In this document: one piece after another, positions 1 through 36,464 of the stretch
Layout: every line of letters starts with the position of its first letter
How positions within the stretch are numbered: the first letter of the stretch is position 1
Origin: Mesotaenium endlicherianum
Lineage: Eukaryota
Reading direction: 5' to 3'
Assembly (NCBI GenBank): GCA_009602735.1
Contig: WELA01003606.1
Location: 80,770 to 144,769 of the forward strand
DNA: 64,000 bases
The notes under the pieces: generated by a model
Told to the model about the DNA's origin: nothing
The model's database searches: none
The model's input: only the letters and a program-made list of their open reading frames with translations
Position numbers and translations under genes: made by a program

Positions 1-16
1 TGGTCAGGAGAAGTTA

Positions 17-1318
17 GTGCCAGACCCCATCAGGAGACGAGCTCTTGTGCAGGAAATGCACGAGAACACTGGACACTATGGTGTCAAGAAGACGTATAGT
101 CTTTTAGAACTGTCTTACTGGTGGAGGGGCATGAAGCAGCAGTGTGAAGATGTGATCAAGGCTTGCCAAAGCTGTGATCGCGTCAAGGCTGGTTTTATAC
201 AGCAACATCCACACTTGCAACCTTTGCCGATCATGGGCCTAGGCCACCGCTGGAGCTGCGATCTCGCAGGTGAGCTACCGCTGTCTAAGCGAGGCAACAA
301 GTATATCATGGTCATGATTGAGCATTTCTCTAAGTGGATAGAGGTCGTGCCTCTGACTGCTAAGGAGAGTCTAGGGACCGCAAAAGCGCTCCTCAATAGT
401 GTGATTGTGCGTCATGGAGCTCCAGCAGAAGTGCTGACAGACCAAGGGTCTGATTTCCAAGGGCCTTTTCAGAAACTCTTGGATAGATGCTTTATCGATT
501 ATTGCACTACGTCTAGAGATCATCCGCAAGCACATGGTCTGGCAGAAAGGATGGTGCAAACCGTTAAGTCTGCTTTGCGCAAGTTTTGCCTTGAGCATGA
601 CAAGCGTGACTGGGATCTGGCCCTGCCATGGCTGGTTATGGGTTACAGATTTAGCAAGCAGGCTGCCTTGGCGAATTACTCGCCATATTAGATACTGTTT
701 GGCAGAAGTCCAGTAGTGCCCAGCAGCACCAAGCTCGATATTGAACAGGTGAAAGACCTGGACAACCCTGATGAACTGCTAAAGGTGATGGTACGTCGTA
801 AGGCGTTATTTGAGCGCATGATGCCGGCTGCGCTGGACAATCTGAAAATTGCGCAGAAAAGAGATACGCAGCGTTACGCCAGGACGCGAGACGGGAGCTA
901 CCGCCTGCAGGTGACGCAGATTCAAGAAGGAGACTTTGTCTACCGCAAGCGCCAGACCAAGACCACCATCGACACCAGTTCAGGTGCAGTGATCTTATGC
1001 GTGAAACATGTGTTTGACAATGGTGTGTTAGAACTGGAAGGTTCTGATGGTAAAACCATGAGAGACCACGTGCAGAATTGCTCGCTATGCCATTTGCCAA
1101 ATATTGATCCTACGATTAGGGTTGTGCCCGAGGAATTGGTGCCAGCCACCCCTTCTGCCAGCTGCAAAGTGCTGGATGATCAGGAAGCAATGGTAACTTG
1201 CGATAAGTGTGGTGCCCGTTGGCACACTTTCTGCATTGGCAAGGAAGAGATTATGGCAGGACGATGGGAATGTCCTGACTCCTTTCCTAAACCCCCTAGC
1301 CGCAGGGCTGGAAAATAA
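17..1318 (+). pseudogene. F1 DDE integrase with C-terminal PHD finger (in-frame TAG at 689-691)
   Basis: HHCC (HENTGH..CQSC), WSCD / TDQGSDF / AER catalytic motifs; ORFs 17-691 and 716-1318 share a frame; C-terminal CDKC-x4-H-x2-C...WECPD is a degenerate C4HC3. Confidence 0.9.
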
Positions 1319-1353
1319 TAGCTTTCAGCAGAAAAGGCACGGACGCCTCAGCT

Positions 1354-1365
1354 GAAAGGGAGGGG
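1354..1365 (+). other. Polypurine tract of F1 copy 1
   Basis: GAAAGGGAGGGG directly before TG of repeat B; identical at 27791-27802. Confidence 0.85.
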
Positions 1366-1669
1366 TGTAAGAGGAATTAAGACAAGGCAAGTATTTTTAA
1401 AATTTTCTGCTAAGTCTTAGGATAAGCAGATGGTGAGAGCTGGGTGAAGGATAACATTGCTCTGAGTGTTGGTCATGGTTGCATGGTGCAAGTTCAGGAG
1501 CCCAGGGATGGGTCAACCTTAGTAAGGCTTGTCTCCGACACACGTTCAAAGGTCGATCGACCATGTTTGCCCACACGTGAGGAGGGCCACCGACACATCG
1601 ACGAGGTCGAAGGCACACGTGCTGGAAGGCTACGCACGTGCCGAGGGATCGACACTGTTAGGCACGACA
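1366..1669 (+). repeat. F1 repeat B (B1, ~304 bp)
   Basis: TGTAAGAGGAATT...TTAGGCACGACA; other copies at 2923-3226, 17040-17343, 27803-28104 and (minus) 28223-28526. Confidence 0.95.
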
Positions 1670-1671
1670 AC

Positions 1672-2922
1672 TGTCGCGACTACTATTTGTTTGACGGTGC
1701 CGCACGCGTAGCGCAAGCTACGGCCACCCAGGTACGGAAAGTCAACGTTGACTCACCGACCACTTGACTGATTACATCGCAGTCAGCGGTTATGTCGACG
1801 TCAAGACCACTGGCAAGGGGTCAATGTGAATGTGTCCCACACCCAGGGATGGGGGAGGTTTTGACAGCATAAACAGCCGCGAGGCTAGAAGCTGGGGATC
1901 AGTGATAAGCCGCCCAGCAGGTACCAAGTCAGGTACTGTGTGACTGGCAGATTAAGCCAGGTCATGGCCGCAATGCCCAGATAGGTTACGGCCTCCCGAT
2001 TGGGAATCTTGAGCAAGTGGCATTTGCTTGTACACGCCGCTCAGGAGTTCTTAGCCATGAGCCAATTAGGCGTGACTGCCAGCTGAGAAGCTAAGCAGCC
2101 ACGCGCGACAATCACGAGGTGTGCATGCATGCCGAGTGACTACGAGTTTGAGTTGAACATGGCTAGGCAGAAGCGACATGCAGCTAAGCTTTGTGACTAA
2201 GCACGGCATTCTCGAAAGATGACGCTGTGTGGTGCCTGCGAATGGCACAAATCTTGCCTGAGACATGTCATTCACTCTCACACACTTTTGCCAAGAAGAA
2301 GGAGCAGAAGGAGCAGAAGGAAGAAGAAGGAGGGCGCAAAGAAGAAGAAGGAGTTCCCAAGGCCATTGAAGAGCCGAGGCCCCACGCTTCTGCCAACGCT
2401 GAAGATTCTTCTCAGTGTATCATAGATAAGTTAGGATTGTAGGAGTGCCCAAGAGGGAATCTCACTGTTGAAAGTAGGAGAATTGCAGAATAGAATCTGC
2501 TAGGAGAGTAGCACAGATTCGGCCGAACGTCACAAGTGTGGGTGAAGCAGCCTTAAAATGGTGAGTTGTGTGTTAGTTTCCAAGTTCTCAGAAGTCGCAT
2601 TCGCATCTCAAAGAGAGAGAGTAGTATTGGCAGATAAAGCTCTCAGTGAAGAACTGAGTGAGCCTAGCCACGCAGTGAAGAGCTGTTAAGGCGCGGAGTT
2701 AAGTGAAGAGCTTGACCCAGGCCAGCATAGACGTGTGGTTTCAGAGTTTTGTAAGCTGTGACTTGCGAAAGTTAAGCGAAAGCCTGAAGGGCGATTTCTC
2801 TGAACCTGACGTTGTATGTCAAGCTGCTTAGAGTGTAATTTCTGCAATCTACAATTTGCTCGCTTGTGAACCCAAGAACCTTAAGGCATAAAGCCTATGT
2901 GGAAGTAAGAGACTTCCGTCCT
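1672..2922 (+). repeat. F1 repeat A (A2, ~1.25 kb)
   Basis: TGTCGCGACTACTAT...GACTTCCGTCCT; other copies at 15813-17039, 17494-18739 and (minus, interrupted) 28527-36464. Confidence 0.95.
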
Positions 2923-3226
2923 TGTAAGAGGAATTAAGGCAAGGCAAGTATTTTTAAAAAATTTCGCTAATTCTTAGGATAAGCAGATGGTGAGAGCTGG
3001 GTGAAGGAGAACATTGCTCTGAGTGTTGGTCATGGTTGTATGGTGCAAGTTCAGGAGCCCAGGGATGGGTCAACCTTGGTAAGGCTTGTCTCCAACACAC
3101 GTGCGAAGGTCGACCGACCATGTTTGCCCACACGTGAGGAGGGCCACCGACACATCGACCAGGTCGAAGGCACACGTGGTGGAAGGCTACGCACGTGCCA
3201 AGGGACCAACACTGTTAGGCACGACA
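2923..3226 (+). repeat. F1 repeat B (B2)
   Basis: Second B copy joined directly to the end of A (…CCGTCCT|TGTAAGAGG…). Confidence 0.95.
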
Positions 3227-15812: not shown

Positions 15813-17343
15813 TGTCGCGACTATTATCCGTTTGACGGTGTCGCACGCGCAGCGCAAGCTACGGCCACCTAGTGCTGAAAGTCAACCTTGACTCACCGAC
15901 CACTTGACAGATTACATCGCAGTCAGCGGTTATGGCGGCGTCAAGACCACTGGCAAGGAGTCAATGTCAGTGTGCCCCACACCCAAGGATGGGGGAGGTT
16001 TTGACAAGACAGTCGCGAGGCTAGGAGCTGGGGATCAGCGATGAGCCGCCCAGCAAGTACCAGGTCAGGTACTGTGTGACTGGCAGATTAAGCCAGGTCA
16101 TGGCTGCAATGCCAAGATAGGTTACGGCCGCCCAGTTGGAAAACTTGAGCAAGTGGCATTTGCTTGCACGCCGCTCAGGAATTCTTAGCCATGAGCCAAT
16201 TAGGCGTGACTGCCAGCTGAGAAGCTAAGCAGCCACGCGCGACAGTCACAAGGTGTGCATGCATGCTGAGTGACTACGAGTTTGAGTTGAGCATGGCTAG
16301 GCAGAGGCGACATGCAGCTAAGTTGTGTGACTAAGCACGGCATTCTCGAAACATGACGCTGTGTGGTGCCTGCGAAAGGCACGAATCTCGCCTGAGACAT
16401 GTCATTCACTCTCACGCACCTTTGCCAAGAGGCAGAAGGAAAGAGAATAAGGGCGCGAAAAAGAAAAAGGAGTTCCCAAGGCCACTGGAGGGCCAAAGCC
16501 CCACGCTTCTGACGACACCGAAGATTCTTCTGTGTATCATAGATAAGTTAGGATTGTAGGAGTTCCCAAGAGGGAATCTCACGGTTGAAGAAGGAGAACT
16601 GCAGAATAGAATTCGCTAGGAGATTAGCACAGAGTCAGCCGAACGCCACAAGTGTGTGTGTGTGAAGCAGCCTTAAAATGGTGAGTTGTGTGTTGATTTC
16701 CAAATTCTCAGAAGTCGCATTCGCATCTCGAAGAGAGAGAGTAGTATTGACAGATAAAGCTCTCAGTGAAGAACTGAGTGAGCCCAGCCTGGCAGTGAAG
16801 AGCTGTTAAGGTGCGGTGTTAAGTGAAGAGCTTGACCCAGGCCAGCATAGACGTAGTTTCAGAGTTTTGTAAGCTGACTTGTGGAAGTTAAGCGAAAGCC
16901 TGAAGGGCGATTTTCTCAAAATCTGACGTTGCATGTCAAGCTGCTTAGAGTGTGATTTCTGCAAACTACAATTTGCTCACCTGTGAATCCAAGAACCTTA
17001 AGGCATAAAGCCTATGTGGAAGTAAGAGGCTTCCGTCCTTGTAAGAGGAATTATGGCAAGGCGAGTATTTTTTAAATTTTCTGCTAAAGTCTTAGGATAA
17101 GCAGATGGTGAGAGCCGGGTGACAAAGAACGTCACCCTGAATGTTGGTCAAGGCTGCATGGTGCAAGTTCAGGAACCCAGGGATGGGTTAACCCTGGTAA
17201 AGCTTGTCACCGACACACGTGCAAAGGTCGATCGACCATGTCTACCACACGTGAGGAGGGCCACCGACACATCAACCAGGCCGAAGGCACACGTGCTGGA
17301 AGGCTACGCACGTGCCGAGGGACCGACACTGTTAGGCACGACA
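15813..17343 (+). mobile_element. F1 solo A-B unit with perfect 4-bp TSD
   Basis: A 15813-17039 plus B 17040-17343; CTAT at 15809-15812 and 17344-17347; termini TGTCG..CGACA. Confidence 0.92.
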
Positions 17344-18862
17344 CTATTCCGCGTCGCGGCCAAGTGATACCATGTGATATGGTGTGAACCAGGCCCAGGA
17401 TTTGACAAAATCCTTGAATTTCGGCAACACCCTGACAGGGAATATATGGATTTCAGCCAACACCCGACTCAAAATGAAGGATTTTAAGAGGCATGTCGCG
17501 ACTACTATCCGTTTGACGGTGCCGCACGCGCAGCGCAAGCTATGGCCACCCAGGTACGGAAAGTCAACGTTGACTCACCGACCACTTGACTGATTTCGTT
17601 GCAGTCAGCGGTTATGTCAGCATCAAGACCACTGGCAAGGGGCCAATGTCAATGTGCCCCACACCCAGGGATGGGGGAGGCTTTGACAGCATAGACAGCC
17701 GTGAGACTAGAAGCTGGGGATCAGTAATGAGTCGCCCAGCAGGTACCAAGCCCAGTACTGTGTGACTGGCAGATTAAGCCAGGTCATGGCCGCAATGCCA
17801 AGATAGATTACGGCCGCCCGACTGGGAACCTTGAGCAAGTGGCATTTGCTTGTACACACCGTGCAAGAGTTCTTAGCCCTGAGCCAATTAGGCGTGACTG
17901 CCAGCTGAGAAGCTAAGCAGCCACGCGCAACAGTCACGAGGTGTGCAGGCATGCTGAGTGACTACGAGTTTGAGTTGAGCATGGCTAGGCAGAAGCGACA
18001 TGCAGCTAAGCTTTGTGACTAAGCACGGCATTCTCGAAGGATGACGCTATGTGGTGCCTGCGAAAGGCATGAACCTTGCCTGAGACATGTCATTCACTCT
18101 AACGCACTTTTGCCGAGAAGCAAAGGAAGCAGAAGGAAGGAGAAGAAGGGCGCGAAGAAGAAGAAGGAGTTTCTTAGGCCATTGGAGGGCCGAGGCCCCA
18201 CGCTTCTGCCGACGCTGAAGATTCTTCTCAGTGTATCGTAGATAAGTTAGGATTGTAGGAGTTCCCAAGAGGGAATCTCACTTTTAAAAGTAGGAGAACT
18301 GCAGAATAGAATCTGCTAGGAGACTAGCACAGATTCGGCCGAACGCCACAAGTGTGTGTGAAGCAGCCTTAAAATGGTGAATTGTGTGTTAGTTTCCAGG
18401 TTCTCAGAAGTCGCATTCGCATCTCGAAGAGAGAGAGTAGTATTGACGGATAAAGCTCTCAGTGAAGAACTGAGTGAGCCCAGCCTGGCAGTGAAGAGCT
18501 GTTAAGGCGCGGAGTTAAGTGAAGAGCTTGACCCAGGCCAGCATAGACGTGTGGTTTCAGAGTTTTGTAAGCTGTGACTTGCGAAAGTTAAGCGAAAGCC
18601 TGAAGGGCGATTTTCTCTGAACCTGACGTTGTATGTCAAGCTGCTTAGACTGTGATTTCTGCAAACCACAATTTGCTCACCTGGGAACTCAAGAACCTTA
18701 AGGCATAAAGCCTATGTGGAAGTAAGAGACTTCCGTCCTACTTCTGAGAACCTCGGTTCTGTGGTTCAAGTGAGTAGAAATTCCCAAGCAAATTGGGGAT
18801 TGAGGCCTGTGAGGGCCGCCGGTGCTCAACCTGGAAGGTGGCCCGGAGAAATTCAACTGTAC

Positions 18863-20560
18863 ATGCGGTTGAGGAGTGGAAGACTCTATGACCTTGTAAA
18901 GTGGAGCCTGCGGAAGGTTCTGATTCAAGCCAGAGTCCACGAGGAAGTGAGACATCTGAGCGCACGGATAACCTGTGGAGTGAGCAACCGTCGGGAGACG
19001 AGTCTCGCCATACTGCCACGAACGGTGTGAATCCGTATCACACGCAAGCCTTTGTACCCAATTTGGGCAGAGAGCACGACGTGTGGGGTAAAGATAGTGA
19101 GTCTTGGTCCCCATTCGAAATGACTGGTGATGATAAGGATGAAAATCCTAAATTCAAGTTGTCTACAAAGTGTTTTAGTGGACGAACCGGGGTAAATAGT
19201 CTCACTTTCGAAGAGTTTGATGAGATCTATTGGGCTAACTTCTTTGAGAAAATCCGACAGGAGTCTTCTTACACTCGATTAGTCGCTTTTATAAGCTTGA
19301 TTCAGTACTTGGACAAGGATGTCTTGTTGCTTAATTGCCAATTCCGGAAGGATGAGAACCTTACCCAGGAATGGGCGTTTGACAAGCAAAAGAAAGCAAG
19401 GGAGAAAGAGGCTGCGAAAGCCCGCCTTACCGCTTTGTTTTCAGGAAGAGCGATACCTGCTGCACCTGTTGAGAGCATAGACTTAGCTGCACTACACAAG
19501 AATTAACAGATGCCATGAGGCAACTCACCGAGGGTCAGCAGCGAGCGGCTACTCGAAATGATGATGTTGGGTCTGTCGCAGAATTGCGTAAAATGTGTGC
19601 AGAATTGTCTGAAAAGATTGCTATTGCTCAGGAACGAGTAACGCGCAGAGCTGCACCTTTTACAGGGCAGCATGGTGATAGTGCCACCACGGAAGCAAGC
19701 CATGCGCAAGCGTTGGCTAGTTGCTGTAGGGATATGGAGGCTGGGGATGACCAGTTAGACTCTGAGCACTGTCTGCGTCGTTTCTTTAAGTTGCTTGAAG
19801 CAAAACTCCCAGAGGATCGCAGTCATAAGGTGCACCGTTATGTGCATTTTGTCCGTCAGAAGAGCGAGACAGTGATGGAGGTCAAATCCAGATTGGTAGA
19901 CCTTGCCAAGAAGGCAGGGATCTATGAGCCTAGGATTGTGGCTGACAAATTCTTATCGTGTTTGGGTAAAGACACAGATCGGGAGGTCAGGCCGCACCTA
20001 TCTGCAAAACGCGGAATCGACTAGAACATTGACGAGGTTTCTGAAATAGCACGCAATGTCGAGGAAGGTAAAGTTTGGTACAAGGACGCGTTCAGGAAGC
20101 TTATGGCTCCTGAGAGAAGGGAGGAATCCTTTCAGCCTAATGCCAATAGCTCTAATTTTCAATTTAAGAGGAAGAGCGGGTCCTTCAATAGGTTTGCTAA
20201 GCACGCCAACACTGCTGAGACAGCAGAGGGCTGTTGGAATTGCAGAAAATCAGGACATCAGAAGAGAGATTGTCCGTACTCGGATGCTAAGCAATTGTCT
20301 TCGAGCAAGGCGCAGGTATGCGCACATTGCAGCAAAAAGGGACACTCAGAAGATGAGTATTGGTCCAAGAATCCAAATCTGAAGCCACCATGGGCTAATG
20401 CTGCCACTAAAGAGGCAGATAAGGGTAAGAAAAAGGAGAAAAATAACTATGGTAACCAAAAGGGTAACCAGAAGTACGATGCTATGAGTGCAAAGATTGC
20501 AGAGTTGAAAGCTCAAATTGTAAGACTAAATGTGCCTAATGTCTATTACGATGCAGATGT
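18863..20560 (+). pseudogene. F1 Gag with two zinc knuckles (frameshifted)
   Basis: MRLRSGR start at 18863; fragments 18901-19506, 19515-20024, 20103-; CWNCRKSGHQKRDC and CAHCSKKGHSEDEY. Confidence 0.8.
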
Positions 20561-20929
20561 GGCCGAAAGGACCGTCTTCAAAGGCGAGAAGCTGACGCCT
20601 GAGAAGGCCGTGGCTGCAACAACTTTGGAGCGTGCAGATCATGACCGTCTGGTTCCAAGGAATACTGAGAAGCTTCCTCAGACCTTTTGGATCACTCTCC
20701 ATGAGAACGAGATTGCGCAGCTACGACAAGCCAAGCCTAAGCCACGCAATACATTTAGTTTTTCGCTGGAGAAGCTGAAGGCTCTGGTGGAACATCGAAT
20801 TCAGCACATTCCTTGTCTTTCACTCGTTGATCTGCGTCTTACGTATCCTTTCACGGTTGAAGAAGCCGGACAGCAGCTGGACATAGCTGAGGAAGGCGCG
20901 AACAGCGCTTCATTGCCTACTAATTTCAG

Positions 20930-21345
20930 CACTGTGAGAGTGCAGAACAAGGATAGAGTTTTGACGTTCAACGACTGGGCCGCTCCCAATATCCTATTGG
21001 ACACTGGCGCACAGCCACTAATCTTGGGAAAGCGAGCTGTGAAAGCTCTGAAATTGACGGCAAGGGACCTGAAAGAAAGTCCTTTTCAATCGAGGACTGC
21101 ATTTGGGCAAATTTCAAAGTCTGGTGGAATCACTCGCAAGCCTGTGAAAATCACAGTAAACTTCGGGAAACCCGAGGAGGCATCACTGCTCATAGAATGC
21201 ACGGTGACAAAAGGCTGAGAACTATGATGTTCTCTTGGGGACAGAAGCCCTGATTCCCCTGGGTATGGTCATTGACCTGCGGAAGCAGAGGGTGACTTAC
21301 CAGTCGACAGATCGGCAGCCGACAGGAGAAATTCCTGTAAAATGG
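20930..21345 (+). pseudogene. F1 aspartic protease
   Basis: ILLDTGAQ active site; YDVLLG motif follows in another frame at ~21223. Confidence 0.85.
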
Positions 21346-21346
21346 T

Positions 21347-22624
21347 TTGCTCGGGAGAGGCGAACTACGGATTGCTAGACGTTGTGTGAATGACCGGTAT
21401 CCAGACCATTATGACCTCATCATGCAACGCGAAGAGGAGGGCTACACCAGCGTCAACATGCCGACTCCCTTGGTTTGGCAACCTCGGATTATGGAGCAAC
21501 TGGAAGCTGTGAGTAACAGGGACCGTGGCCCGCAAGAGCTGCTGCCAGTTCCCTACCCAATTAAGTCTGCTACCAATTTGATGCCTGGAGTAGACCCGCT
21601 GCCGCAAGGCATTGTGAGGATGGAAGATCCTTTTTGCAGGAGAGGAGTAGTAGTGCTGGAATTGTTCGCCGGACTTGGTTCTGGAACCATCTCACTGATT
21701 CAGCGAGGTATCCAGGTATCCAAAGTGCTGTATGTGGACAATGATGAGAGTGCTTTCACAGCATTTAAGGAGGTCATGAGTCAGATGCGGCAAATGCATC
21801 ATTTCAAGGCGTTGGTGCCTATTGACTCTAGTTTGGTGCGTCTTGTTGGAGGAAACGTTCTCGATGTGAAGTCTGAGGACCTGTATGGTTACAGGATTGA
21901 CTGGATCTTTACGGGATTCCCTTGTCAACCTTTCTCGCAAGCTGGGAACAGGAGGGGATTCAATCACCCGCGAGCACAACACTGGGAATGGATGGTGAAA
22001 AACATCAGTATGCTGCGGGAACGCCAGCATCTCTACCCACCAGTGTTTGTGATTGAGAATGTACATCCAGGGATGGATTACAACCAGATGAAGCGAGAAG
22101 ATCCATGGCTGGTCTTCAACTCCACCTTGGGTCATCATGTATTGATTAACGACGCTAGGCACGGAGGACTCTCACACTGGGCCTGACTATTCTGGATGAA
22201 CGGCATGTCCATTGAAATCGTGAGGGAGATGGAGGAGATTACGCGGCGCACACCAACGGCAGTATCTGTGGGAGAAGCACTGATGGTGGAAACCAAGCCA
22301 GTAATCAGGAGGGATTCCTACCCACAATACGTCGTCAACGAGCCAGGCCGGCCAAGGGTGGTGCTGCCCACCTTCACGGCATACCTAGGATCACGCGCAT
22401 TCGTGAATGGAGGACTGAGAATGGTCAAGAATGCGCACGACAAAGAAGCTCAGTGGAGAGAGCCGACAGCTGAAGAGAAGGGAAGGTGCCTGGGGGTACC
22501 CAACTCCATTGCACAAGAAATTGTTGCGATGGTGGGACAAGACGACGCTGGGAAGATATTCGGCAATATGATTGGGCATTACTCCATGACGTGGTTGGTG
22601 GAGACGATTATGACTTGGCAGTAG
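21347..22624 (+). pseudogene. Retrotransposon-borne C5 cytosine DNA methyltransferase domain (one in-frame TGA at 22184)
   Basis: Motif I VLELFAGLG (~21650), IV TGFPCQPFSQAG (~21911), VI VIENV (~22049), VIII-like HWA*LFWMN, IX-like REPTAEEKGRCLG, X IFGN (~22556), all in one frame. Confidence 0.92.
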
Positions 22625-24741
22625 ATGACGTTCTCTGACAAGCCTATGCCCAGGCCGAGACCAGTAACGATTGGAGTCCATGTGGTGCCAACCTCTGATC
22701 AGAGAGCTATCAAAGAAGCGCATCGGCGACAAGAAGAACATAGTGTTGAAAGGGACGCAGCTGAGGCTGACCAAGATGAAACACTCAGAGAAACCAGAGT
22801 GGTGGAGCTGACCAGGTGTCAAGACCTATTGGCGCGAATTGACAATCGGATGGCGGCTCTACACGACCCTCTGGAAAGAGAGCTGCGAAGGCTGCGAGAA
22901 GACGTAGCCATGAAAGACCACGCAACTGGTGCAGCAAACCCTTTGGTGAGCGCTGCAGCAAGCAAACCACAGGAGGTTCCATTATCTGCGGAACGTGCCA
23001 GCCAAGTATTTGTGAGGATGCCGAAATGGGAGGACAATACCACTTCTGAGTTACGGAACATGGCCCCAGATCAGGTCTACGGAAGCCCATCCCCAGACGC
23101 GGTAACGTCAAGATATGAAGAACGCCAGTGTAACATTGGCGAATGGGCCGAAGAATGCAGTCAGAAGTCAGGAAATTCTGGAGGGTCTGGAAAGACCATT
23201 TGCCTGGAGGTAATTTTTGAAGAACGCAGGAAGGAGACGGTCGAGAGATTGCCCGCTACACCTGTTCTGATGAACCCAGAGCCAGAGGCCAAGGGGCAAC
23301 CACAAGACACAATTGGCAGCACAGCTGAGTCGATCGCCAGGCAAATCATGGAACAATTGCTGGAAGCAGACGTCCCTTGACTCAAGGAAGAGAAAGTGGC
23401 GAAAGCAGCTCTCGCTCTACAGTCAGCCATCATCAACATGGCGAGGCTCAACACAAGAGGGGATGAAGAATGGCCGCCTCTTGGAGCAGAGAAGCCAGAG
23501 GAGGGAGAGGATGCAGAGATGCAAGGCCTTTCAGAGTTAGAGTTGCCATCACTCAACAATGAAGGGGACGCCAGGGAAGAAATTCCACGTTTTCCTACGC
23601 CAGAGTTGGATCTGCTTGACTCACAGGAGCTGAGGACAGACAACCGGGTAGCTGACCACTTGATGGAACCAAGCCCGGCAGACCTTTATGAAGAACTAAG
23701 GTCACCAATATCCAGTACCCCTGCTGCCAGTTTTTCAGTGGTAGAGCCTAAGTCAACAGTACGACCGCCGCAACGGCAGGAGGTGACTGCCTGCACTGCT
23801 AAAGTGGAGACAGCCCAAGGTAAGCCCGAGAGTCGTGCAAACAGACCAAGGAAGGTGGCCCGTGAGGGTAACGCATCTTTTAGAAGGATGCTAAAGCGAT
23901 ATTTCAAGCATAAGGGGAAGGCTCAGAGAGAGGGCGTCCCGCGAGGAACTACAGCCCCACCTTCTTTGCCTTTGCGGTATATTTTGCAGAGAGAGGGAGA
24001 GGACGGCTTGATTCGCAGGGCAATGGCATTGGGCATCAGTATGTCGCCAGGCAATAACACGCCCTTGTTGCAACTATCAAACCTTAGGATGTAGAGGCTG
24101 GAGGCACCCGCTCCCACGACACCTGCAATCCCAGAATGGGAACTGATGGATCTGAGAAACAACATCAGACGCTTAAACGCAGCAGACGATGCTTTCCTCG
24201 CACAACTAGCGGCACCTCAAAGGCCGCAAAAGTTGACGCAGGCATGGACGGTCACACCACCTGCAAGGGAGGAGTATGGCACGACCGTCGCCCGCATGGC
24301 TATTATTGAGCAAGAGTGGGGATGGGTAATCAGCCCTAGGACAGATCCTGCAGGTTGGCCAATGGCAAACCAACCTCGGCCACGTGAAGAAGGAGGAACA
24401 GGGACCAGTTGGACTGCAATCGACGAGGAAATGTTTCTGAGGCAACCCATCCGGAGGCGCCTGACGTACACCTCACCGCAGGAGAGGCGACGTGTCATTG
24501 GGAAAGGTAAAAAGCCTAGGAAACAGGCTGCAGAGCCTTTGGCAACGGAGGAGCAAGCTCAAAGCCCGCTACCCCACCTCCTAAGAATCAGGCAAAAAGC
24601 CCTGAGAGCCAGAATCAGGCAGAAAAGCCTGAGGGCCAGGATGAGGGCGGAAAGCCCCCATCTGCACCCAAGGAATAGCAACTACTGGATGCCTTTGTTG
24701 GGGAGAAGCAACCTGAAACTGAGACTTTTGCCATTGGGAAA

Positions 24742-26140
24742 ATGGTCTCAGCCCAGCAGAAAGCACAAGTAGAAAGGTTGCTGAAGAAACACCGCAAGGT
24801 GTTTGCTTTTACTAAAGAGGAGATTGGTAGAACCACTCCCGGTGTGTGTGAAATCACACTAACTACTGATAACCCAGTCAGGCTTGGGCCGCATAAGCTC
24901 AGTCAGACAGAGTGGGACTGTGTGGAGAAAACTTGCAAAGAGCTGCATAAGCTTCGCATGATTGAAAAATCTACCTCAGTGCATGGGGCTCCCACAGTAG
25001 TAGTCGCTAAAAAGGACGAGGCCGGCAATTACACTGCCACTCACATGTGTGGAGATTACAGGCGACTGAATCTCTACACGGAGCCAGACAGCTACGTGAT
25101 GCCTACACCGGAGCGGATCTTTGCGATTGCCACCACCGGAAAGGTGTTCAGCATCATCGATCTGCGCCAAGGTTTCAACCAGATCCCTGTGAAAACAGAA
25201 GATCGAGGTAAGACCGCTTTGTGGGCTCAAAGGGAACTTTGGCAATGGACAGTAATGCCATGTGGGCTGAAAAATGCCCCAGCCATATTTCAGAGGACTA
25301 TGGATAAAGTGCTGGAGGGGCTGGATTCTGCTAAACCATACATTGACGATGTGGTAGTATTCAGCAAGTCCACAGAGGAGCACCTCGAGCACTTGGAACA
25401 AGTGTTCCAGCGCCTGGAGAAATTCCAGATGAAGCTGCATCCTGGAAAGTGCAGATTCTTTGAGGCACACGTGCCTTACCTAGGACATGAGATGGGGAAC
25501 AATGCTATGTCCCCTCAGGCTATGAAGACTGAGGCCATTTACAAGATACCTGCACCTGCGAATGTGTCCAAGCTGAAAGCTCTGTTGGGGCTAAGCGGAT
25601 ACTATCGTAAGTTTATGGAGGATTATAGCAGAATTGCTAAACCCCTGACAAAACTCCTGAAAAAGGATGTGCCTTTTGTGTGGACAGAAGCTCAGGAGAA
25701 AGCTATGAACGAGCTTAAGGAGCGGCTGATAACAGCCCAGTCTTGCGAACGCCTGACTATTCCAAGCCGTTCAATCTGCACACTGACTGGAGTCGTGTGG
25801 GAATTGGCGCAGTACTCACTCAGGCCGCAAGCCCTAGAGAGGAGCATGTCATTGCCTATGCCTCACGCTCTAACAATTGAGCGGAGAGCAACTACTTGTC
25901 CTACGAAGGAGAGCTGCTGGCAGTGCTTTGGGCTGTCACACACTTGAGAGAATATCTGTGGGGAAGACCCTTCACGCTGATCACGGATCACTCACCATTA
26001 CTATGGCTGATGAAGAATGGAGACCTCACTGGTAAGTTGGCTCGCTGGGCTCTTAAGCTGCAAGAGTACCAAATGACGGTGGTGCACAGAGCAGGAGTGC
26101 TCAACAATGACGCCGATGGACTCAGCAGGAACCCAGGCCC
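24742..26140 (+). pseudogene. F1 reverse transcriptase and RNase H (frameshifted)
   Basis: MCGDYRRLN, IDLRQGFNQI, MPCGLKNAPAIFQ, YIDD; RNase H LHTDWS..GIGAVL, YEGELLAVLWAV, TDHSPL. Confidence 0.95.
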
Positions 26141-26439
26141 ATCTTTAGACGACAGAACAGGAGCTCAAGAGGGCAAAGACCCGAGCAGCCCAGCAGAGTT
26201 GGTGACCTGCCTAACCAAAATGGCTGGAATGGTAGCATCAGGTGAAGCTGAGCCTCTACTTCTGTTCAGTCCAGAGATCAGAAAAGATCAAGCTACTATG
26301 CACTGGCTGAAGACGGGAATTCACTTGGAAGGACTATCAGTGAAGGAGAAGGACCAGGTAAGCTATCGAGCTAAAAAGTTTTGCTGGAAACGCAACAACC
26401 TCTTTGAAATTGAAGGTACTGGTCAGGAGAAGTTAGTGC

Positions 26440-27755
26440 CAGACCCCATCAGGAGACCAGCTCTTGTGCAGGAAATGCACGAGAACACTGGACACTATGG
26501 TGTCAAGAAGACGTATAGTCTTTTAGAACTGTCTTACTGGTGGAGGGGCGTGAAGCGGCAGTGTGAAGCCGCTGATGCCGCTAAAGCCGCTGATCAAGAC
26601 TTGCCAAAGATGCGATCGCGTCAAGGCTGGTTTTGCTCAGCAACATCCACACTTGCAACCTTTGCCGATTGTGGGCCTAGGCTACCGCTGGAGCTGCGAT
26701 CTCGCAGGTGAGCTACCGCTGTCTAAGCGAGGTAACAAGTATATCATGGTCATGATTGAGCATTTCTCTAAGTGGATAGAGGTCGTGCCTCTGACTGCTA
26801 AGGAGAGTCTAGGGACCGCAGAAGCGCTCCTCAATGGTGTGATTGTGCGTCATGGAGCTCCAACTGAAGTGCTGACAGACCAAGGGTCTGAGTTCCAAGG
26901 GTCCTTTCAGAAACTCTTGGATAGATGCTTCATCGATCATCGCACTACGTCTAGAGATCATCCGCAAGCACATGTTCTGGCAGAAAGGATGGTGCAAACC
27001 GTTAAGTCTGCTTTGCGCAAGTTTTGCCTTGAGCATGACAAGCGTGACTGGAATCTGGCCCTGCCATGGCTGGTTATGGGTTACAGATTTAGCAAGCAGG
27101 CTGCCTTGGCGAATTACTCGCCATATTAGATACTGTTTGGCAGAAGTCCAGTAGTGCCCAGCAGCACCAAGCTCGATATTGAACAGGTGAAAGACCTGGA
27201 CAGCCCTGAGGAACTGCTAAAGGTGATGGTACGCCGTAAGGCGTTATTTGAGCGCATGATGCCGGCTGCATTGGACAATCTGAAAATCGCACAGAAAAGA
27301 GATACGCAGCGTTACGCCAGAAGGCAGACGGAAGTTACCGCCTGCAGATGACGCAGATTCAAGAAGGAGACTTTGTCTACCGCAAGCGCCAGACCAAGAT
27401 CACCATAGACACCAGTTCAGGTGCAGTGATCTTACGTGTGAAACATGCGTTTGACAATGGTGTGTTAGAACTGGAAGGTTCTGATGGTAAAACCATGAGA
27501 GACCACGTGCAGAATTGCTCGCTATGCCATTTGCCGAATATTGATCCTACGATTAGGGTTCTGGCCGAGGAATTGGTGCCCGCCACGGCTTGTGCCAGCT
27601 GCAAAGTGCTGGATGATCAGGAAGCAATGGCAACTTGCGATAAGTCTGGTGCTCGTTGGCACACTTTCTGCATTGGCGAAGAAGAGATTATCGCAGGACA
27701 ATGGGAATGTCATGATTGCAATCCTAAACCCCCTAGCCACGGGGCTCAAAAATAA
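26440..27755 (+). pseudogene. F1 copy 2 integrase plus PHD finger (~27591-27719)
   Basis: Same DDE motifs as copy 1; CASC..CDKS-x4-H-x2-C..WECHDC. Confidence 0.9.
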
Positions 27756-30623
27756 TAGCTTTCAGCAGAAAAGGCAGGGACGCCTCAGCTGAAAGGGAGG
27801 GGTGTAAGAGGAATTAAGGCAAGGCAAGTATTTTTGAACTTCCTGCTAAGACTTAAGATAAGCAGATGGTGAGGGCTGAGTAAAGTAAACAAAGCCCTGA
27901 GAGTTGGTCATAGTTGCATGGTGCAAGTTCAGGAGCCCAGGGATGGGTTAACCCTGGTAAGGCTTGTCACCGCCACACGTGCAAAGGTCGATCGACCATG
28001 TTTGCCCGCACGTGAGGAGGGCCACCGACACATCAACCAGGTCGAAGGCACACGTGCTGAAAGGCCACGCACGTGCCGAGGGATTGACACTGTTAGGCAC
28101 GACACGCATCCTCGTGCCGGGCAAAAACATTCAAAGTTTACCATTACACTGATATAAATTAGGTACAATTGTACGCATTGCAGAGGTCGGCAAAGGTCTT
28201 ACATAGACTTGTTTGATAACATTGTCGTGCCTAGCAGTGTCGGTCCCTCGGCACGTGCGTAGCCTTCCACCACGTGTGCCTTCGACCTGGTCGATGTGTC
28301 GGTGGCCCTCCTCACGTGTGGGCAAACATGGTCAATTGACCTTTGCACGTGTGTCGGAGACAAGCCTTACCAAGGTTGACCCATCCCTGGGCTCCTGAAC
28401 TTGCACCATGCAACCATGACCAACACTCAGAGCAACGTTCTCCTTCACCCAGCTCTCACCATCTGCTTATCCTAAGACTTAGCAGAAAATTTTAGAAATA
28501 CTTGCCTTGCCTTAATTCCTCTTACAAGGACGGAAGTCTCTTACTTCTACATAGGCTTTATGCCTTAAGGTTCTTGGGTTCACAAGCGAGCAAATTGTAG
28601 TTTGCAGAATTCACACTCTAAGCAGCTTGACATACAACGTCGGATTTAGAGAAAATTGCCCTTCAGGCTTTCGCTTAACTTTCACAAAGTCACAGCCTAC
28701 AAAACTCTGAAACTACACGTCTATGCTGGCCTGGATCAAGCTCTTCACTTAACACCGCGCCTTAACAGCTCTTTACTGCGAGGCTAGGCTCACTCAGTTC
28801 TTCACTGAGAGCTTTATCTGCCAATACTACTCTCTCTCTTCGAGATGCGAATACGACTTCTGAACTTCAAAACCAACACACAACTCACCATTTTGAGGCT
28901 GCTTCACCCACACTTGTGGCGTTCGGCCGAATCTGTGTTAATCTCCTAGCAGATTCTATTCTGCAGTTCTCCTACTTTCAACAGTGAGATTCCCTCTTGG
29001 GAACTCCTACAATCCTAACTTATCTATGATACACTGAGAAGAATCTTCAGCGTTGGCAGAAGCGTGGGGCCTCGGCTCTCCAATGACCTTGGCAACTCCT
29101 TCTTCTTCTCGCGCCCTTCTTCTTTTTCCTTCTTCTCCTTCTGCTCCTACTGCTTCTTGGCAAAAGTGCGTGGGAGTGAGTGACATGTCTCAGGCAAGAT
29201 TCGTGCCTTCCGCAGGCACCACACAGCGTCATCTTTCGAGAATGCCGTGCTTAGTCACAAAGCTTAGCTGCATGTCGCTTCTGCCTAGCCATCCTCAACC
29301 CAAACTCGTAGTCACTCGGCATGGATGCACACCTCGTGATTGTCGCGCGTGTGTAGTGAAACAGATAGATAAAGTACTTAGTAAAACAGAATACTTTATC
29401 TATTCAAGACAAGGATCTTTGAACACAAGTGGTAGCTTCTTGAAAGAGAGATGGCTTCTTGAAAGTTAATATATTTCTGGATTTTGGGAAGTACAAGAGT
29501 GATTCTCGAATGTCTTTCTATGTTCTAGCTCTTGTTTATATACTTGCTACATAAGTAATTTCTAGGAAGGTGTATGTTGATGTGTTGGCACCCAACACAT
29601 CCCAAAACTTGCCACCTCTTTCTAGAATAATGTACACATGTCCTTTTGACCTAAAAATGGCACATTTGACTTTTGCCACATGGAGTTCTTCTAGGTCTTT
29701 CCTCTAACTTCGAAAATGCCTTGGAAGGTTCAAAGGACATGAACCAAGTTACTAGAGTACCTATTCACACTTGACTCCACACAATACTACTCCAAATATA
29801 TTTGAAAACATTAAAATATATGCAAACTAATATATAATAACTCAAATCACTACATCACCCCCCCGATAGAAAAAGCGACGTCTCGGCGCGTCAAGTCAGG
29901 TCTTACACATGTGGAGCAAACTAGTCAACAGTTTCAAGTCAGATGCCACACATGTGAAGAGGACTAGTCAAAGGCGCCAAGTCAGGTGCTACACATGTAA
30001 GGTAGACTAGGCAAGGTCGTAGGTGGTGTGACCTTATTGGCTAGCCTACTCCTTAATGATAAAGAAAATTGTACAAGTTGGCCCAGAATCTGCCACGAAC
30101 TCAAAAATTCATAGCGGCCACAGAACTGCTCCAAATCTGAAAATTCGAGTGCCAGACGGACCGCGTCGGAGAACTCTACCGGGTCACCAAATTTGAGAGC
30201 ATTCTCATTTCTGGAGTGTCGTTGAGAGCTGAGAGAGTAGGCACTCCTCCAAATCTGTGCAGAAACTTCTGAAAATCATAAGTCCTTCTATACTTCTCCA
30301 AATTCTGCAAACTAAGTCTCAAACTGGGCGCTGTAAGATGTTCTACCAGAGTCTTGAGTTTCAGAGCATTCCAAGTTCAGGGGAGGGCACAATGTCAGAA
30401 GGCATATTCTGCCCTAACAATGCCAGCAGCCTGACCCCCTTCTACTTAGAGCATCATATCTCTCTCACCAGTGCTCCAAATTGAGCAAACTTGGACTCTA
30501 AATGACCGGCTACTCATGGACTACAGCCAGGTAAATTTTCAGAATTTATTATGCAGAGACCTATTACCAGTAGCAGTTTTAGTTTTCTGTCCAGAAACTG
30601 CGAGAAGAGAAGAGTGTCTAATG

Positions 30624-33600
30624 TCAATTTTTCCTCTTTCTTGTTCTTGCAGGCTGCCTCCAAGGGGTCTTCTGCTGCTTCTTGATGGTGGCAGGCTGCC
30701 TCCCTGAAGTCTTTGGGCTTCTAGTAGAGAGACTTGGGGCTGGTCCAAGATGGGGGCTGGCGGCATGGAAGCGCTTCAACTTTCTCTGAACTTTGTCAAG
30801 GTAGTGCGCCGCCACCCAACTATTCTTCGAATCTGGATATCCTTTCCTCTTCATCAAGTATTGCTGTTGTCTCCTGAAATTTCTCATAGCCACTATGTCT
30901 TCCACTTCGTACTCCAAATGATCATCCACTATTGTTGGGGCTAGTGGGGTTGTCACACGTCCTGGGAACTTGTTGTCGGGTTGCACATACGGCTTGAATA
31001 GGGAAGCGTGGAATACGGGGTCGATGTGCATAGTCTGGGGAAGTTCTAGCTTGAAAGCAACGGGGTTGACTTGCTGGATAATCTTGAAGGGTCCCAAATA
31101 CTTGGGAGAGAACTTGCTGCCGGCAGGCCTGTTGTTCAGGGAAATGTTCTTGGATGATAGTAACACGTTGTCACCCACTCTGTACGTAATTTCTCTTCTG
31201 GATCTATTCGCCACTCTTGCTTGAGCATCTTGCGCGTGTTGTAGAGCTTTCTTCGCTGCTGTAAGGGCTGCTTCTAATGTCTCCATAAAATTGGTGGCTG
31301 CAGGTACTTCATCAAGGCCAGCCGTGAAGCTCAGTGGCGTGGTCGGATGGAATCCATAGTTGAGGAAGAATGGGGACTCTTAGGTAGAGGCTTGCGTTGT
31401 GTTGTTGTAGGCAAACTCCAAGGGGGTCAAGTACATGTCCCAATCTTGCTCCAGAGTAGACACGTAGGCCTTTAGAGAGGTCTTTAGAGTACAATTCATA
31501 CGCTCGGTTTGCCCATCTGATTGCGGGTGGTAGGCAGTGGACATATCCAGCGATGTACCCAAGTTCTTGAAGAGATTTTTCCAGAAATGGCTTGTGAATC
31601 TTGGGTCTCTATCTGACACAATTCTTGATGGTAGTCCATGGAGTCGGAAGATGTTGTCAAAGATGAGTCTTGCAAGTTGTGGTGCTGTAGCCTTAGTCGT
31701 CGTGGGAATAAAATGAGCCATCTTGGTAAGTCTGTCCACCGCCGTGAGTATTGCATTATGGCCTCGAGGTGTCACGGGCAAGTCCACGATAAGGTCCATT
31801 GAGATGTCCGTCCATTGTCTTTCGGGGATTGGTAGTGGTTGGAGGAGTCCTCCCGCCTTTTGCGATGATGGCTTGATTCTTTGGCATGTGTCACAGCTCC
31901 TGCAGTACTCCTTGACTTGCTTAGACATGCCTGGCCAACAATAAGTCCTAGCTAGAACGCCCGTGGTCCTTAGGATTCCAAAGTGTCCTCCAAGAGGGTT
32001 GTCGTGTGCTTCTCGTAGAAGCAAGAGCCGGAGGTCTAAGTCATTAGGAACACATCTCTGGCCCGTATCTTGCCTCACCCAATAATTGCCTTCTTGCTTC
32101 TTGCATGGGTCCAAGGCTGCTTCTCCGTTCTTGTAGTAAGGGTCTCTTTCATAGGCGGCTGAAAATCGAGCTTCCAGATCTGTCTTCAGGGATACCATCA
32201 CTGCATTTAATTGCAGTCTTGAGAGGGGGTCAGCCGGGTTTGTCTTGCCGGGCTGGTACTGAATCGTGATGTTGTATTGTTGCAAGTATCCGCTCCATCT
32301 TGCTTGTCTCCTTGAGAGATACGGCTGCGTTTGGAGGTGCTTTAACGCCTCGTGGTCCGTGGTGACCAGTACTTTGCGTCCTTCAACGTAGCAGCGCCAA
32401 ACCTTCAAGGCATGTACAATCGCCAATGCCTCTCGCTCCGTGGTTGTATAATTTTGCTCGGCTGGATTTAGCTTCCTTGACTCGTAGGCGATGGGCTGCA
32501 GTCCCTTGCCTTGGTCTTGAAGCAGGATTGCTCCTATTGCATAGGAAGATGCATCGGTGATGACGTGGAAGGGCCAATCTGGGTTTGGACTTGGGAGTGT
32601 GAGCACCGGGGATGTGGTCAATCTTCGCTTTAACTCTTGAAATGCCTCTTCCTCTTTCTCGGTCCATGTATATAGCCTGTCCTTCTTGAGTAGATCTGTC
32701 AGGGGGGCTGCTATGTGCGAGAAGCCTTGGATGAATTTTCTGTACCAATTGGCAAATCCCAAGAATGACTGGAGTTCTTTCTTGGTCGTGGGGGTTGGCC
32801 ATTCCTCCACCACCGTGGTCTTCTTGGGGTCTATCTTGATGCCATCAGCAGTCACGTGGAGACCTAGGAACTCCACTTCTTGTTTGGCAAACTCGCATTT
32901 TGACTCCTTCGCAAACAGCTTGTTTTGCTTCAATACTTCAAGGACTTCTTTCAAGTGTCTCGCATGCTCTTCAAGGGTCTTGCTGTAGATAAGGATGTCA
33001 TCGATGAATACCACCACAAATCTGTCCAACATGGGCTGAAATATGGTGTTCATCATAGTCATGAAAGTTGCTGGCGCGTTGGTGAGTCCAAATGGCAGGA
33101 CCATGAACTCAAAATGTCCATATCTTGTCCTGAATGCCGTCTTCTCTATGTCCGGTTCTGCGATGCGAATCTGGTGGTAGCCGCTCCGTAAGTCAATCTT
33201 CGTGAAGTACTTGGCTCCAACCAGCCGGTCCATGAGCTCATCCATGCGCGGCAGCGGGTATCGATTCTTGATGGTGATCTTGTTGAGGGCGCGATAGTCC
33301 ACACACATCCTCAAGGTACCATCTTTCTTCTTGACAAATAGCACCGGGGCTCCAAATGGCGACTTGCTAGGTCGAATGAAGCCATGCTCCAGTAGCTCCT
33401 TGATTTGCTTCTTGACTTCGTCTAGCTCCGTGTATGACATTTTGAACGTAGGCCGAGAGATGGGCTTGCTTCCGGGCTCCAACTCTATCTTGTGGTCTAC
33501 GAATCTTTTGGGGGGTAGGCCCTTGGGCAATTCCGGGGAGAACACTTCTTTGTAGTCCTCTAAGACTTCTTGTATCTCCTTGGGAACGGGGCTGCCTTCT

Positions 33601-34289
33601 TGACTCTCGATGTCTTTCTTGATGTCTTTTGGCGTGATCAAGGCCAAAAGAAGCTCGTGTCCCTTCCTCACAAGTCTCTTGAGTTGGAGGGCGGACAATA
33701 GTATCTCGTGTGCCGGCTTCTGGATGTCTTGGGTCTGGATATTCTGGATTGCGCGCAAAATACAGATTCTTGAAGTGATGTCATTCTTGATCTTGATAGT
33801 ACCGGTCCTCCAATCAACTTGGGGGTTGTGCTTGGTCAACCAAGGCGTCCCTAGGATGACGTCGTACTTGCCCAATTGCATGGGGGAGAACACTACTCTA
33901 TCCTTGAAGGACTTGATAGAGAGTGCCAAGGGGTACGTCTTCTTGGAAGGGGTAGTATAGGAGAATCCATCGGGCATCATAATCTCCTCGTCGTGGTCAA
34001 GAGTTCGCATAGTAATACCGTGCTTGGTGGCAAAATCTGCAGCAATGAAGTTGCCTTGAGCTCCGCTATCCACCAAGATGTGGACCTTCTCTCCTCCAAG
34101 GTAACCTCTCAAACTCATTGGGGCTGGAACGTCGTCTTCAACGGGGGTCTCCACCTCACTTGGCGTGTTGCCTTCTCGTGAAGTGGGTCTTGGGGTGGTA
34201 GGCTCCTGGCCTACCGGCGCTGTCCGTTTTTTGACAACTTTTTGGGGCATGAAAGTGCACGATGGCCCTTTTCCTTGCAATAAAAGCAT
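30624..34289 (-). pseudogene. F2 Pol (PR-RT-RH-IN-chromodomain), premature TAA at 31380-31382
   Basis: LVDSGA, FIDD, TDASSY, HHCC and DDE, YEVEDIV..YLMKRKGY..SW; TAA replaces the CAA seen in copy 2. Confidence 0.93.
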
Positions 34290-35491
34290 AGTCCAGCCGT
34301 CATGAGAGCTTCTTTTTCAGCCGGGGAGAGTCTTGCTTTCACTCCTTGCTGGTTTCTTGCATCATAAGTGTCATTGGAGGGTCTTCCACTCTTCCGGGCA
34401 GCCGCGGGGTCCCTTTTAATAACTCCGATTTCCATGGGTGTGGGTCCAGATTCGGATGTGGAAGGGGCTGCGTACACCCGCGTCGTCGGTACCCGTGAAG
34501 ATGAAGGCACGGAGTGCTTGAAATCCAAGGTATCCACCTTTTGGGCCACTTCAATGATCTTTGAGAAGTCCGTCAAGTCGCGTAACTCCACTTCCTTTGC
34601 CACCTTGGGTTTGAGGCCAAAGATGTAGCGGTCAATCTTCTCCTCGAGAGACATGTTGGGGATCTCAAGAGTGAGGGCGTGAAATCTGGATGTATACTCT
34701 TGAACGGACGTCGTTTGCTTGAGATGGTGGAGCTTTCCTCGGGCAATCTTCTCCGCATTGATGGGCATGAATTGCTTCTTGAGGGCCTCACGAAAATCTG
34801 CCCATCTTGCATATGATGGTGGGGGCTCTTGGCCGAGCATGGGGTGCGCCATAGCTTGATATATAGCCGCTTGATAGTTACGCCACCATGATGTTGCTGC
34901 TCCTCTAAGTAAGGTAACGGCAAAGGGAACGTAGTCCTCCTCGGGTACTTCAAGGAATGCGAGGTACGTCTCCACTTGGTAGAGCCATAAATTCAGGTTG
35001 GCACCTTTCCCGGGGTTGAAAGTGTCGGGTTTGCCGGGCTTGATGAGTTTCCTTGCTCTCGTTGGCTCTTGTGGAGGCGCTTGAGCCGGGGCTGGATTTT
35101 GAGCATTGCTCGCAATAGGGGCAACCATGGCAGCCATAGCTTCTCTTGACGCTTGCACGGTTGCTTCATAGGTGGCCAAGCCCACTTGGTTGTGGACGGT
35201 CATTAGGAAGGCTGCCCACTCATTTGCGGGAACTCCTTGTGGTGGGGTCAACTTTGCTATAGCGGCTGCCACGGGATTTGACGGTGCTCCTCCTTGTGGT
35301 GCTTCTTGTTGTTGGAGATTTCCTTGAGTAGGCTCTCCCATCGACGCTGGAGGAGGGTGTGCTCCTCCTTGTGGTGCTTCTTGTTGTTGCAGATTTTCTT
35401 GAGTGGGCTCTCCCATCGGCGCTGGAGGAGGGTGTCTTGGAGAGGAAGGGCTTCCTTCGAAAGCTTGCTGTTGGTCTTGAGGATCGGCCAT
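34211..35491 (-). CDS. F2 Gag (426 aa, CCHC zinc knuckle)
   Basis: Retrotransposon gag signature ([11 protein letters not shown]), [22 protein letters not shown]; same protein as 56339-57619. Confidence 0.92.
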
Positions 35492-36464
35492 CTTCTTGTG
35501 CTACCAAAGTGCCTAGCTCCGATACCACTGTAGTGAAACAGATAGATAAAGTACTTAGTAAAACAGAATACTTTATCTATTCAAGACAAGGATCTTTGAA
35601 CACAAGTGGTAGCTTCTTGAAAGAGAGATGGCTTCTTGAAAGTTAATATATTTCTGGATTTTGGCAAGTACAAGAGTGATTCTGGAATGTCTTTCTATGT
35701 TCTAGCTCTTGTTTATATACTTGCTACATAAGTAATTTCTAGGAAGGTGTATGTTGATGTGTTGGCACCCAACACATCCCAAAACTTGCCACCTCTTTCT
35801 AGAATAATGTACACATGTCCTTTTGACCTAAAAATGGCACATCTGACTTTTGCCACATGGAGTTCTTCTAGGTCTTTCCTCTAACTTCGAGAATGCCTTG
35901 GAAGGTTCAAAGGACATGAACCAAGTTACTAGAGTACCTATTCACACTTGACTCCACACAATACTACTCCAAATATATTTGAAAACATTAAAATATGTGC
36001 GAACTAATACATAATAACTCAAATCACTACAGCGTGGCTGCTTAGCTTCTCAGCTGGCAGTCACGCCTAATTGGCTCATGGCTAAGAACTCCTGAGCAGG
36101 GTGTACAAACAAATGCCACTTGCTCAAGATTCCCAACCGGGCGGCCGTAACCTATCTTGGCATTGCGGCCATGACCTGGCTTAACCTGCCAGTCACACAG
36201 TACCTGACTTGGTACCTGCTGGGCGGCTCATCACTGATCCCCAGCTTCTAGCCTCGCGGCTGTCTATGCTGTCAAAACCTCCCCCATCCCTGGGTGTGGA
36301 GCACATTGACATTGACCCGTTGCCAGCGGTCTTGACGTCGACATAACCGCTGACTGCGAGATAATCAGTCAAGTGGTCGGTGAGTCAACGTTGACTTTCC
36401 GTACCTGGGTAGCCGTAGCTTGCGCTGCGCGTGCGGCACCGTCAAACGGATAGTAGTCGCGACA

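Follow-up and report, generated by a model that had tools for sequence, protein, structure and literature searches.

The window, i.e. the whole 64,000-nt stretch of Mesotaenium endlicherianum DNA that was analysed, holds four insertions of one retroelement family, whose repeats are here called A and B. These are element 1, a solo A-B, element 2 and an inverted solo A-B, and their parts lie as follows.

2..1318, plus strand: 3' part of the pol of element 1, with the zinc finger, DDE core and PHD-like C-terminus of the integrase; broken by a stop at 689-691
1354..1365, plus strand: polypurine tract directly before B1; an identical tract precedes B in element 2
1366..1669, plus strand: 304-nt repeat B1; its end, GGCACGACA, is the right att half
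1670..1671, plus strand: spacer, 2 nt; AC in the window copy, GC in most sister copies
1672..2922, plus strand: 1251-nt repeat A2; its start, TGTCGCGAC, is the left att half
2584..2595, plus strand: complement, within A, of the primer-binding site; presumed start of the RNA and self-primer, some 30 nt below a TTAAAA box
2923..3226, plus strand: repeat B2, with which element 1 ends on the right; differs from B1 at 18 of 304 nt; the A/B joint is at 2922/2923
15813..17343, plus strand: solo A-B insertion, with an exact 4-bp target duplication, CTAT
17494..28104, plus strand: element 2, A-internal-B; A at 17494-18739, polypurine tract, B at 27803-28104; flanks GGCA/CGCA
18740..18753, plus strand: primer-binding site right after A1 of element 2; 14-nt perfect complement of 18398-18411 inside A1
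28223..36464, minus strand: inverted solo A-B, split by a chromovirus at 29352-36031; without a 4-bp duplication (TGCA/ATGT)

Element 1, whose left end lies outside the window, has the order integrase, polypurine tract, B1, AC, A2, B2, and its Pfam domains are H2C2, rve and a weak PHD. In element 2, the frames of which are broken, the domains follow each other as gag/CCHC, protease (weak), C5 DNA methyltransferase, RT, RNase H, H2C2 and rve integrase. The integrase carries the motifs WSCDL, LTDQG and GLAER, placing it in the DDE class, and its best PDB matches were the Ty3 and foamy-virus integrases, while its C-terminus had no match among viral contigs. A tyrosine recombinase domain was not found in the 28 + 8 frames scanned.

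The family thus has Ty3/Gypsy features throughout: the order gag, protease, RT, RNase H, integrase (element 2), the DDE integrase, TG...CA ends, a 4-6 bp duplication (in seven of eight insertions, one mismatch allowed), and a primer-binding site and polypurine tract, of the self-priming type as judged by complementarity. It lacks the canonical LTR layout, as its left end is A and its right end B-GC-A-B or B. Instead, the A-internal-B-A-B layout of Ngaro/PAT type occurs, whole in the related loci L083 and L093 and from the integrase onward in element 1. The analogy with Ngaro/PAT drawn in the sequence-only reading therefore holds for the layout but fails for the enzyme, since a DDE integrase and 4-bp target duplications are present and no tyrosine recombinase was found. 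Chromoviruses (the Tcn1/Tf1 group) also differ, as the window's family has a PHD-like end, no chromodomain and a separate clade. In its features, a C5 methyltransferase inside a Gypsy pol and DIRS-like repeats, the family is like KnitGypsy-Dnmt3.

Several other observations concern the window itself. The methyltransferase domain of element 2 (PF00145 at 21341-22183, E 9.5e-17) lies in a stretch inside pol, 21341-22620, with visible PCQ and ENV motifs; relatives in the clade carry it before RT, or between RNase H and integrase. From the methyltransferase to RT, at 22600-24700, runs a coding-like stretch of about 2.1 kb that is absent from the compared clade proteins and had no Pfam match. The inverted solo A-B (28223-36464) starts 118 nt from the end of element 2 and is possibly a recombinant of two insertions. 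The chromovirus within it (29352-36031, minus strand) and a second copy (55797-62482, plus strand) share about 99% identity; both have long open frames, LTRs of canonical form and duplications of 5 bp (GCGTG and TATGC). A third, deleted copy lies at about 48662-52135. The window's chromoviruses are a young family, and serve as a canonical LTR control. At 44918-45720, G+C-rich 210-nt tandem units with CTGACA-GG-TGTCAG palindromes adjoin a minus-strand zinc-knuckle frame.

The junction between B1 and A2 reads CACGACA-AC-TGTCGCG (1663-1678), in which CGACA and TGTCG form a perfect 5-bp inverted repeat and the 7-bp arms have one mismatch. The bare motif is common, with 98 inverted repeats of 5-bp arms and a 2-nt spacer in the window, of which 12 have the inner CA..TG. 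The placement of this copy is nevertheless beyond chance: B ends exactly at 1669 (five B copies in the window) and A begins exactly at 1672 (four A copies), both borders having been set from other insertions. These exact repeat boundaries confirm the earlier claim that the right (B, ...GACA) and left (A, TGTC...) termini of the element stand head to head. This is the only B/A junction in the window. A two-sided similarity scan for the junction gave one match in the 64,000 nt of the window and none in 140,294 nt of pol regions; it took in 46 of the 156 loci described below and also matched subterminal repeats at a distance of 5 nt, none of them a junction, and family-M junctions were therefore placed by alignments of A and B rather than by the scan.

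Four runs were aligned over window positions 900-2920, run X8 having no contig across 1670. Run X1 has 24,306 depth units from 31 contigs at position 1670, and 22,962 of them read G; these depths are not copy numbers, and were used as shares at single positions only. G is also found in a gap-free 581-nt contig of run X5, from a second organism. No indel at the junction occurred among 12 of the 20 indel rows listed for the runs over 900-2920. The majority form is consequently CGACA-GC-TGTCG, a perfect 12-bp palindrome, and the AC of the window is a decayed variant, G having changed to A in a CAG context, probably by methylcytosine decay.

Relatives were collected by alignment of 19 homologous polyproteins, giving 156 loci, from which L082, L101, L104, L107 and L118 were removed because they are duplicates; L120 stops short of its LTR. 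Self-comparison of the loci revealed L083 and L093 as whole elements of A-internal-B-A-B form, and numerous B-A-B ends. Altogether, 15 distinct junctions, i.e. that of the window and those of 14 further loci, were distributed over five families: the window's, M (nine loci), N (L094, L116 and L117), O (L078) and P (L114). The further B/A junctions that the sequence-only reading called for thus exist, and the fixed spacer length it proposed was borne out, the spacer being 2 nt in 15 of 15 junctions. Conservation of AC, on the other hand, was not observed, as the spacers are GC (7 of 15), AC (3), GT (2), AT (2) and TG (1, in a decayed copy). Out of 21 departures from the junction core, 17 are C to T or G to A. 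The 19 distinct 3' ends of family M comprise nine that continue into B-NN-A, nine that enter host DNA and one with a cut B.

The junction is conserved between families that otherwise differ. RT identity between families is 38-47%, and the window's repeats had no blastn match below E 0.68 in the other four families, in a comparison covering those of the window and part of those of family M; the best match to family N was the junction itself. In a quick integrase tree, ten out of ten junction-bearing rows fell in one clade of 26 of the 60 rows (SH-aLRT 100, on a long stem), and the RT tree agrees (support 0.92). Named members of the clade are Closterium, Calypogeia, Pleodorina and Coleochaete, and the clade stands apart from the window's chromovirus in both the RT and the integrase tree. 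No Klebsormidium protein was seen among the 120 matches listed out of 862, nor among three proteins of a profile search.

Taken as a whole, the junction is very probably a working att pair, and integrase cleavage 3' of each CA is, as far as can be read from the sequence, the best reading of it. Within B1, CGACA recurs at -134, -79, -20 and -5. Such subterminal repeats before the right att (window B 1536-1669; L083 14480-14529, with a 15-nt period in family M) are possible integrase-binding sites.

Both ends could be compared in eight insertions, where an exact 4-bp duplication was found in three, one with a single mismatch in four and none in one. The length fits 4 bp, with 24 of 32 positions matching, against 6 of 24 at 3 bp, 14 of 40 at 5 bp and 13 of 48 at 6 bp. 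In L093 and L083 the duplication encloses the whole A-internal-B-A-B unit, so that A-internal-B-GC-A-B inserts as one piece. Around A2-B2 of element 1 there is no duplication (CAAC vs TCCA).

Signals for reverse transcription lie on either side of B-GC-A. A purine tract stands before B, and in four of four runs this tract was found ahead of B as a loose end. The 14-nt complementarity of the primer-binding site of element 2 compares with 10 nt for the next longest such complement among 9,043 internal positions, and the letters of 18740-18753 also follow A in runs X2 and X6. The five families have five unrelated priming sites, each of which pairs over 10-16 nt with a site in A that lies some 25-35 nt below a TATA-like box. 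The pairing is 16 nt (one G-U) in family N, 15 nt in O and 12 nt in P; in family M it is 10-12 nt in six of 11 copies and weaker or elsewhere in the other five. In families N and O the self-primer site in A is itself a hairpin (L094 6085-6110, L078 8800-8835), and the primer-binding site therefore looks like the stretch that immediately precedes the inferred RNA start. One RNA run, with only 38 reads, had no peak at the start or end.

In ordinary LTR elements the copied LTR spans from the polypurine tract to the primer site. With the tract before B and the self-priming site after A, reverse transcription should consequently yield B-GC-A at both ends, a copied LTR that should lack a ...CA right end. 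A ends in CCT, AAT or AGT in three families and B of family M starts ATAC; the cDNA tips are thus not conserved att sites, whereas the internal palindrome is conserved. The earlier view of the junction as a stored copy of the end-to-end joint is therefore probably mistaken, as the priming sites put B-GC-A inside the reverse-transcribed LTR; the likely joint is A/B, at 2922/2923.

In the window's family the A/B joint is exact in more than 99% of depth, with no indel reaching 1% (runs X1 and X2), and the rare variants in X1 carry an additional A or AC, with which the priming site begins. The joints of family M are exact in four of nine cases (L083, L095, L100 and L145), 1-2 nt off in three, decayed in one and a duplication in one, L098, where A2 is joined 137 nt above B and the polypurine tract is duplicated. 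This is as expected if a mis-primed left end was joined to the right end, and L098 together with the A and AC variants would favour end-joining over a copied A/B joint. An early idea, that A/B is a ragged repair joint, is weakened by the variants staying below 1% in the window's family. As for the mirror form A-B-GC-A-internal-B, A with its priming site was preceded by non-B DNA in 13 of 15 cases, these 13 having long flanks, while L078 and L114 have B-NN-A followed by the primer site and may be collapsed assemblies. The mirror-image product is absent or rare.

Comparable elements have been described in other algae. For KnitGypsy-Dnmt3 of Klebsormidium nitens (de Mendoza et al. 2018, PMC5890265), one legend gives DIRS-type repeats with Gypsy domains, and another gives the DIRS repeat layout as A-coding-B-A-B. 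The likeness to the window's family, compared by description only, comprises Gypsy domains, the C5 methyltransferase in pol and DIRS-like repeats; in the available part of that text neither the sequence nor the spacer of a junction is given, nor a target duplication, a priming site or a mechanism. A 2026 preprint, in its available part, mentions streptophyte Gypsy-DNMT3 without repeats. Gypsy-7a_cRei of Chlamydomonas reinhardtii (Craig et al., PMC9940879) is PHD-bearing and active, with 86 new insertions in one laboratory strain, and according to a legend the final 8 bp of its right LTR are missing from the left one. In the accompanying library its internal part closes with a G-rich tract followed by these 8 bp and GC, before the TG of the LTR, which explains the 8 bp missing on the left. 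Among the library entries listed, CA-GC-TG is found in 13 of the 22 numbered Chlamydomonas Gypsy families (2, 3, 5, 6, 7, 8, 9, 10, 11, 14, 18, 21 and 22), seven others being canonical and two unclear; these were scored by eye from entry ends and motif matches, and a left LTR without B is visible for 7a and the whole-element entries only. The available text of PMC9940879 holds nothing on the junction or a mechanism. These families are likened to the window's by their PPT-B-GC-A library ends. Their B measures 6-8 bp in several cases and about 50 in others, compared to 304 in the window's family. Several start with TGG, presumably a tRNA-type primer site, as opposed to the self-priming of the window's family. 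A self-priming arrangement is shared with the Tf1/Sushi and Tcn1 chromoviruses, in which the primer-binding site is complementary to the element's own 5' end (PMC6317226, as far as available), but these have matching LTRs at both ends and chromodomains.

A biochemical counterpart of the junction is the 2-LTR circle of prototype foamy virus. There, according to the available part of the report, the integrase cuts the circle junction in vitro 3' of CA on both strands, leaving 5' AT overhangs (Delelis et al. 2005, PMC1180852). Both systems have a palindrome with 2 nt between CA and TG, which is cut to 3'-processed ends in the virus and would be so in the window's family; the foamy-virus palindrome arises only from joined linear ends and is absent from the provirus (PMC1180852). 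In the window's family it is encoded inside the LTR, and the ring would be closed by a different joint, A/B.

We propose, as a reasonably likely though inferred route, that the ends of the copy join at A/B and that the integrase opens the resulting ring at the internal palindrome before insertion. The RNA would start inside A1, self-prime at the site after A1 and end in or beyond A2. Ordinary strand transfers would then give [B-GC-A]-internal-[B-GC-A] in linear form, without a TG...CA pair at its tips, and joining of these tips would create the A/B joint. Since the inserted element has B as its right end, whereas in the linear copy no B follows the last A, tip joining is the simplest source of this end. 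The integrase would nick 3' of CA on both strands of the left palindrome, giving two CA-3'OH ends with 2-nt 5' overhangs, i.e. a normal intasome substrate, and strand transfer with a 4-bp stagger would produce A-internal-B-GC-A-B, in which the internal junction would template the next round. A-internal-B and solo A-B could arise if both junctions are cut, from circles with one LTR, or when repeats recombine later.

Some observations speak against such a ring. A symmetric two-LTR circle should also give A-B-GC-A-internal-B, and given the rarity of this form an asymmetry must be assumed. Speculatively, the A2/B2 stretch of the transcript itself might splint the cDNA ends, or the left junction might become double-stranded first and hence be bound first. 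The A/B joint is almost always exact, unlike ragged host end-joining, one of the eight insertions lacks a duplication, and pairing of at least 10 nt is clear in only six of the 11 family-M copies. In retroviruses, moreover, linear DNA is the accepted substrate of integration, and cleavage of circles a minor route.

An alternative without a free ring, which we regard as unlikely, has the integrase cut the left junction on the linear copy and insert both ends, the host then joining the loose A end to the start of B. The product, the A/B variants and the L098 joint would all be the same, and A-internal-B, which makes up nine of the 19 distinct 3' ends of family M, could be obtained from linear DNA by two cuts. 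A near-exact A/B joint is, however, hard to obtain from the repair of a chromosome break. Furthermore, with intasome footprints as they are, the piece cut off in the several Chlamydomonas families with a B of 6-8 bp would be too short to act as an intasome end before joining.

Ngaro, PAT and TOC1 elements have a tyrosine recombinase and make no target duplication, and the window's family differs from them by its DDE integrase, polypurine tract, priming site and 4-bp duplications. The A-internal-B-A-B layout, with an internal B/A matching the joined termini, is common to both (layout as in the available part of PMC5890265). It also underlies another explanation that we hold to be improbable, in which the RNA runs from A1 into B2, switches of template inside A and B rebuild the two ends, A/B is copied instead of newly formed and the integrase merely trims or opens the rebuilt B/A. 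Such templating is in line with the repeat layout of DIRS-type elements (PMC5890265, in part) and the exact A/B joint, and leaves no mirror product to account for. It sits poorly with the polypurine tract and priming sites, which are conserved exactly where ordinary LTR reverse transcription requires them, with the duplicated tract at the L098 joint, and with the short B, since the 8 bp of Gypsy-7a are too few for a long-homology template switch.

The junction could also be a fossil or by-product, either of A-internal-B next to a separate solo A-B or of recombination or a tandem array. Solo A-B and A-internal-B are both present in the window with their own duplications, and there is a single junction. 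The same spacing and core, though, recur in the five families and in the 13 Chlamydomonas library families, and the duplications flank the whole unit (L093, L083) and not A2-B2 of the window, so that this explanation is largely refuted and very unlikely. Even less credible is a tyrosine recombinase supplied in trans with the integrase as a passenger: the layout is typical of recombinase elements, but the scanned frames held no such domain, the DDE motifs are present, and a DDE enzyme is indicated by the 4-bp duplications, by the TG...CA ends and by the loss of both spacer bases. An assembly artefact, conceivable in so repeat-rich a region, is refuted by the junction occurring in contigs of two organisms, 14 independent loci and a curated library.

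While the repeat layout has been in print since 2018, the conserved cut site and the implied route of ring opening before insertion appear to be new. A literature search, which did not extend to figures, theses, book chapters, Repbase reports or most subscription journals, found no description of the palindrome or of a mechanism. Retrovirology has long asked if LTR-LTR circles lead nowhere or serve as precursors of integration, and circle-junction cleavage is also a topic of HIV papers. We lean towards the view that, in a widespread Gypsy group of the green lineage, the right att has moved from the cDNA tip to the middle of the LTR, making a circle-first route obligatory for a DDE integrase. 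Paired-LTR finders would then overlook such elements in the genomes of algae and bryophytes or cut them at the wrong places. If the proposal is true, it explains the DIRS-like layout of a Gypsy element without a recombinase, and circle cleavage, so far a side reaction of retroviruses, would here be required by the structure of the genome itself, a question that the active, junction-carrying Gypsy-7a_cRei makes directly testable.
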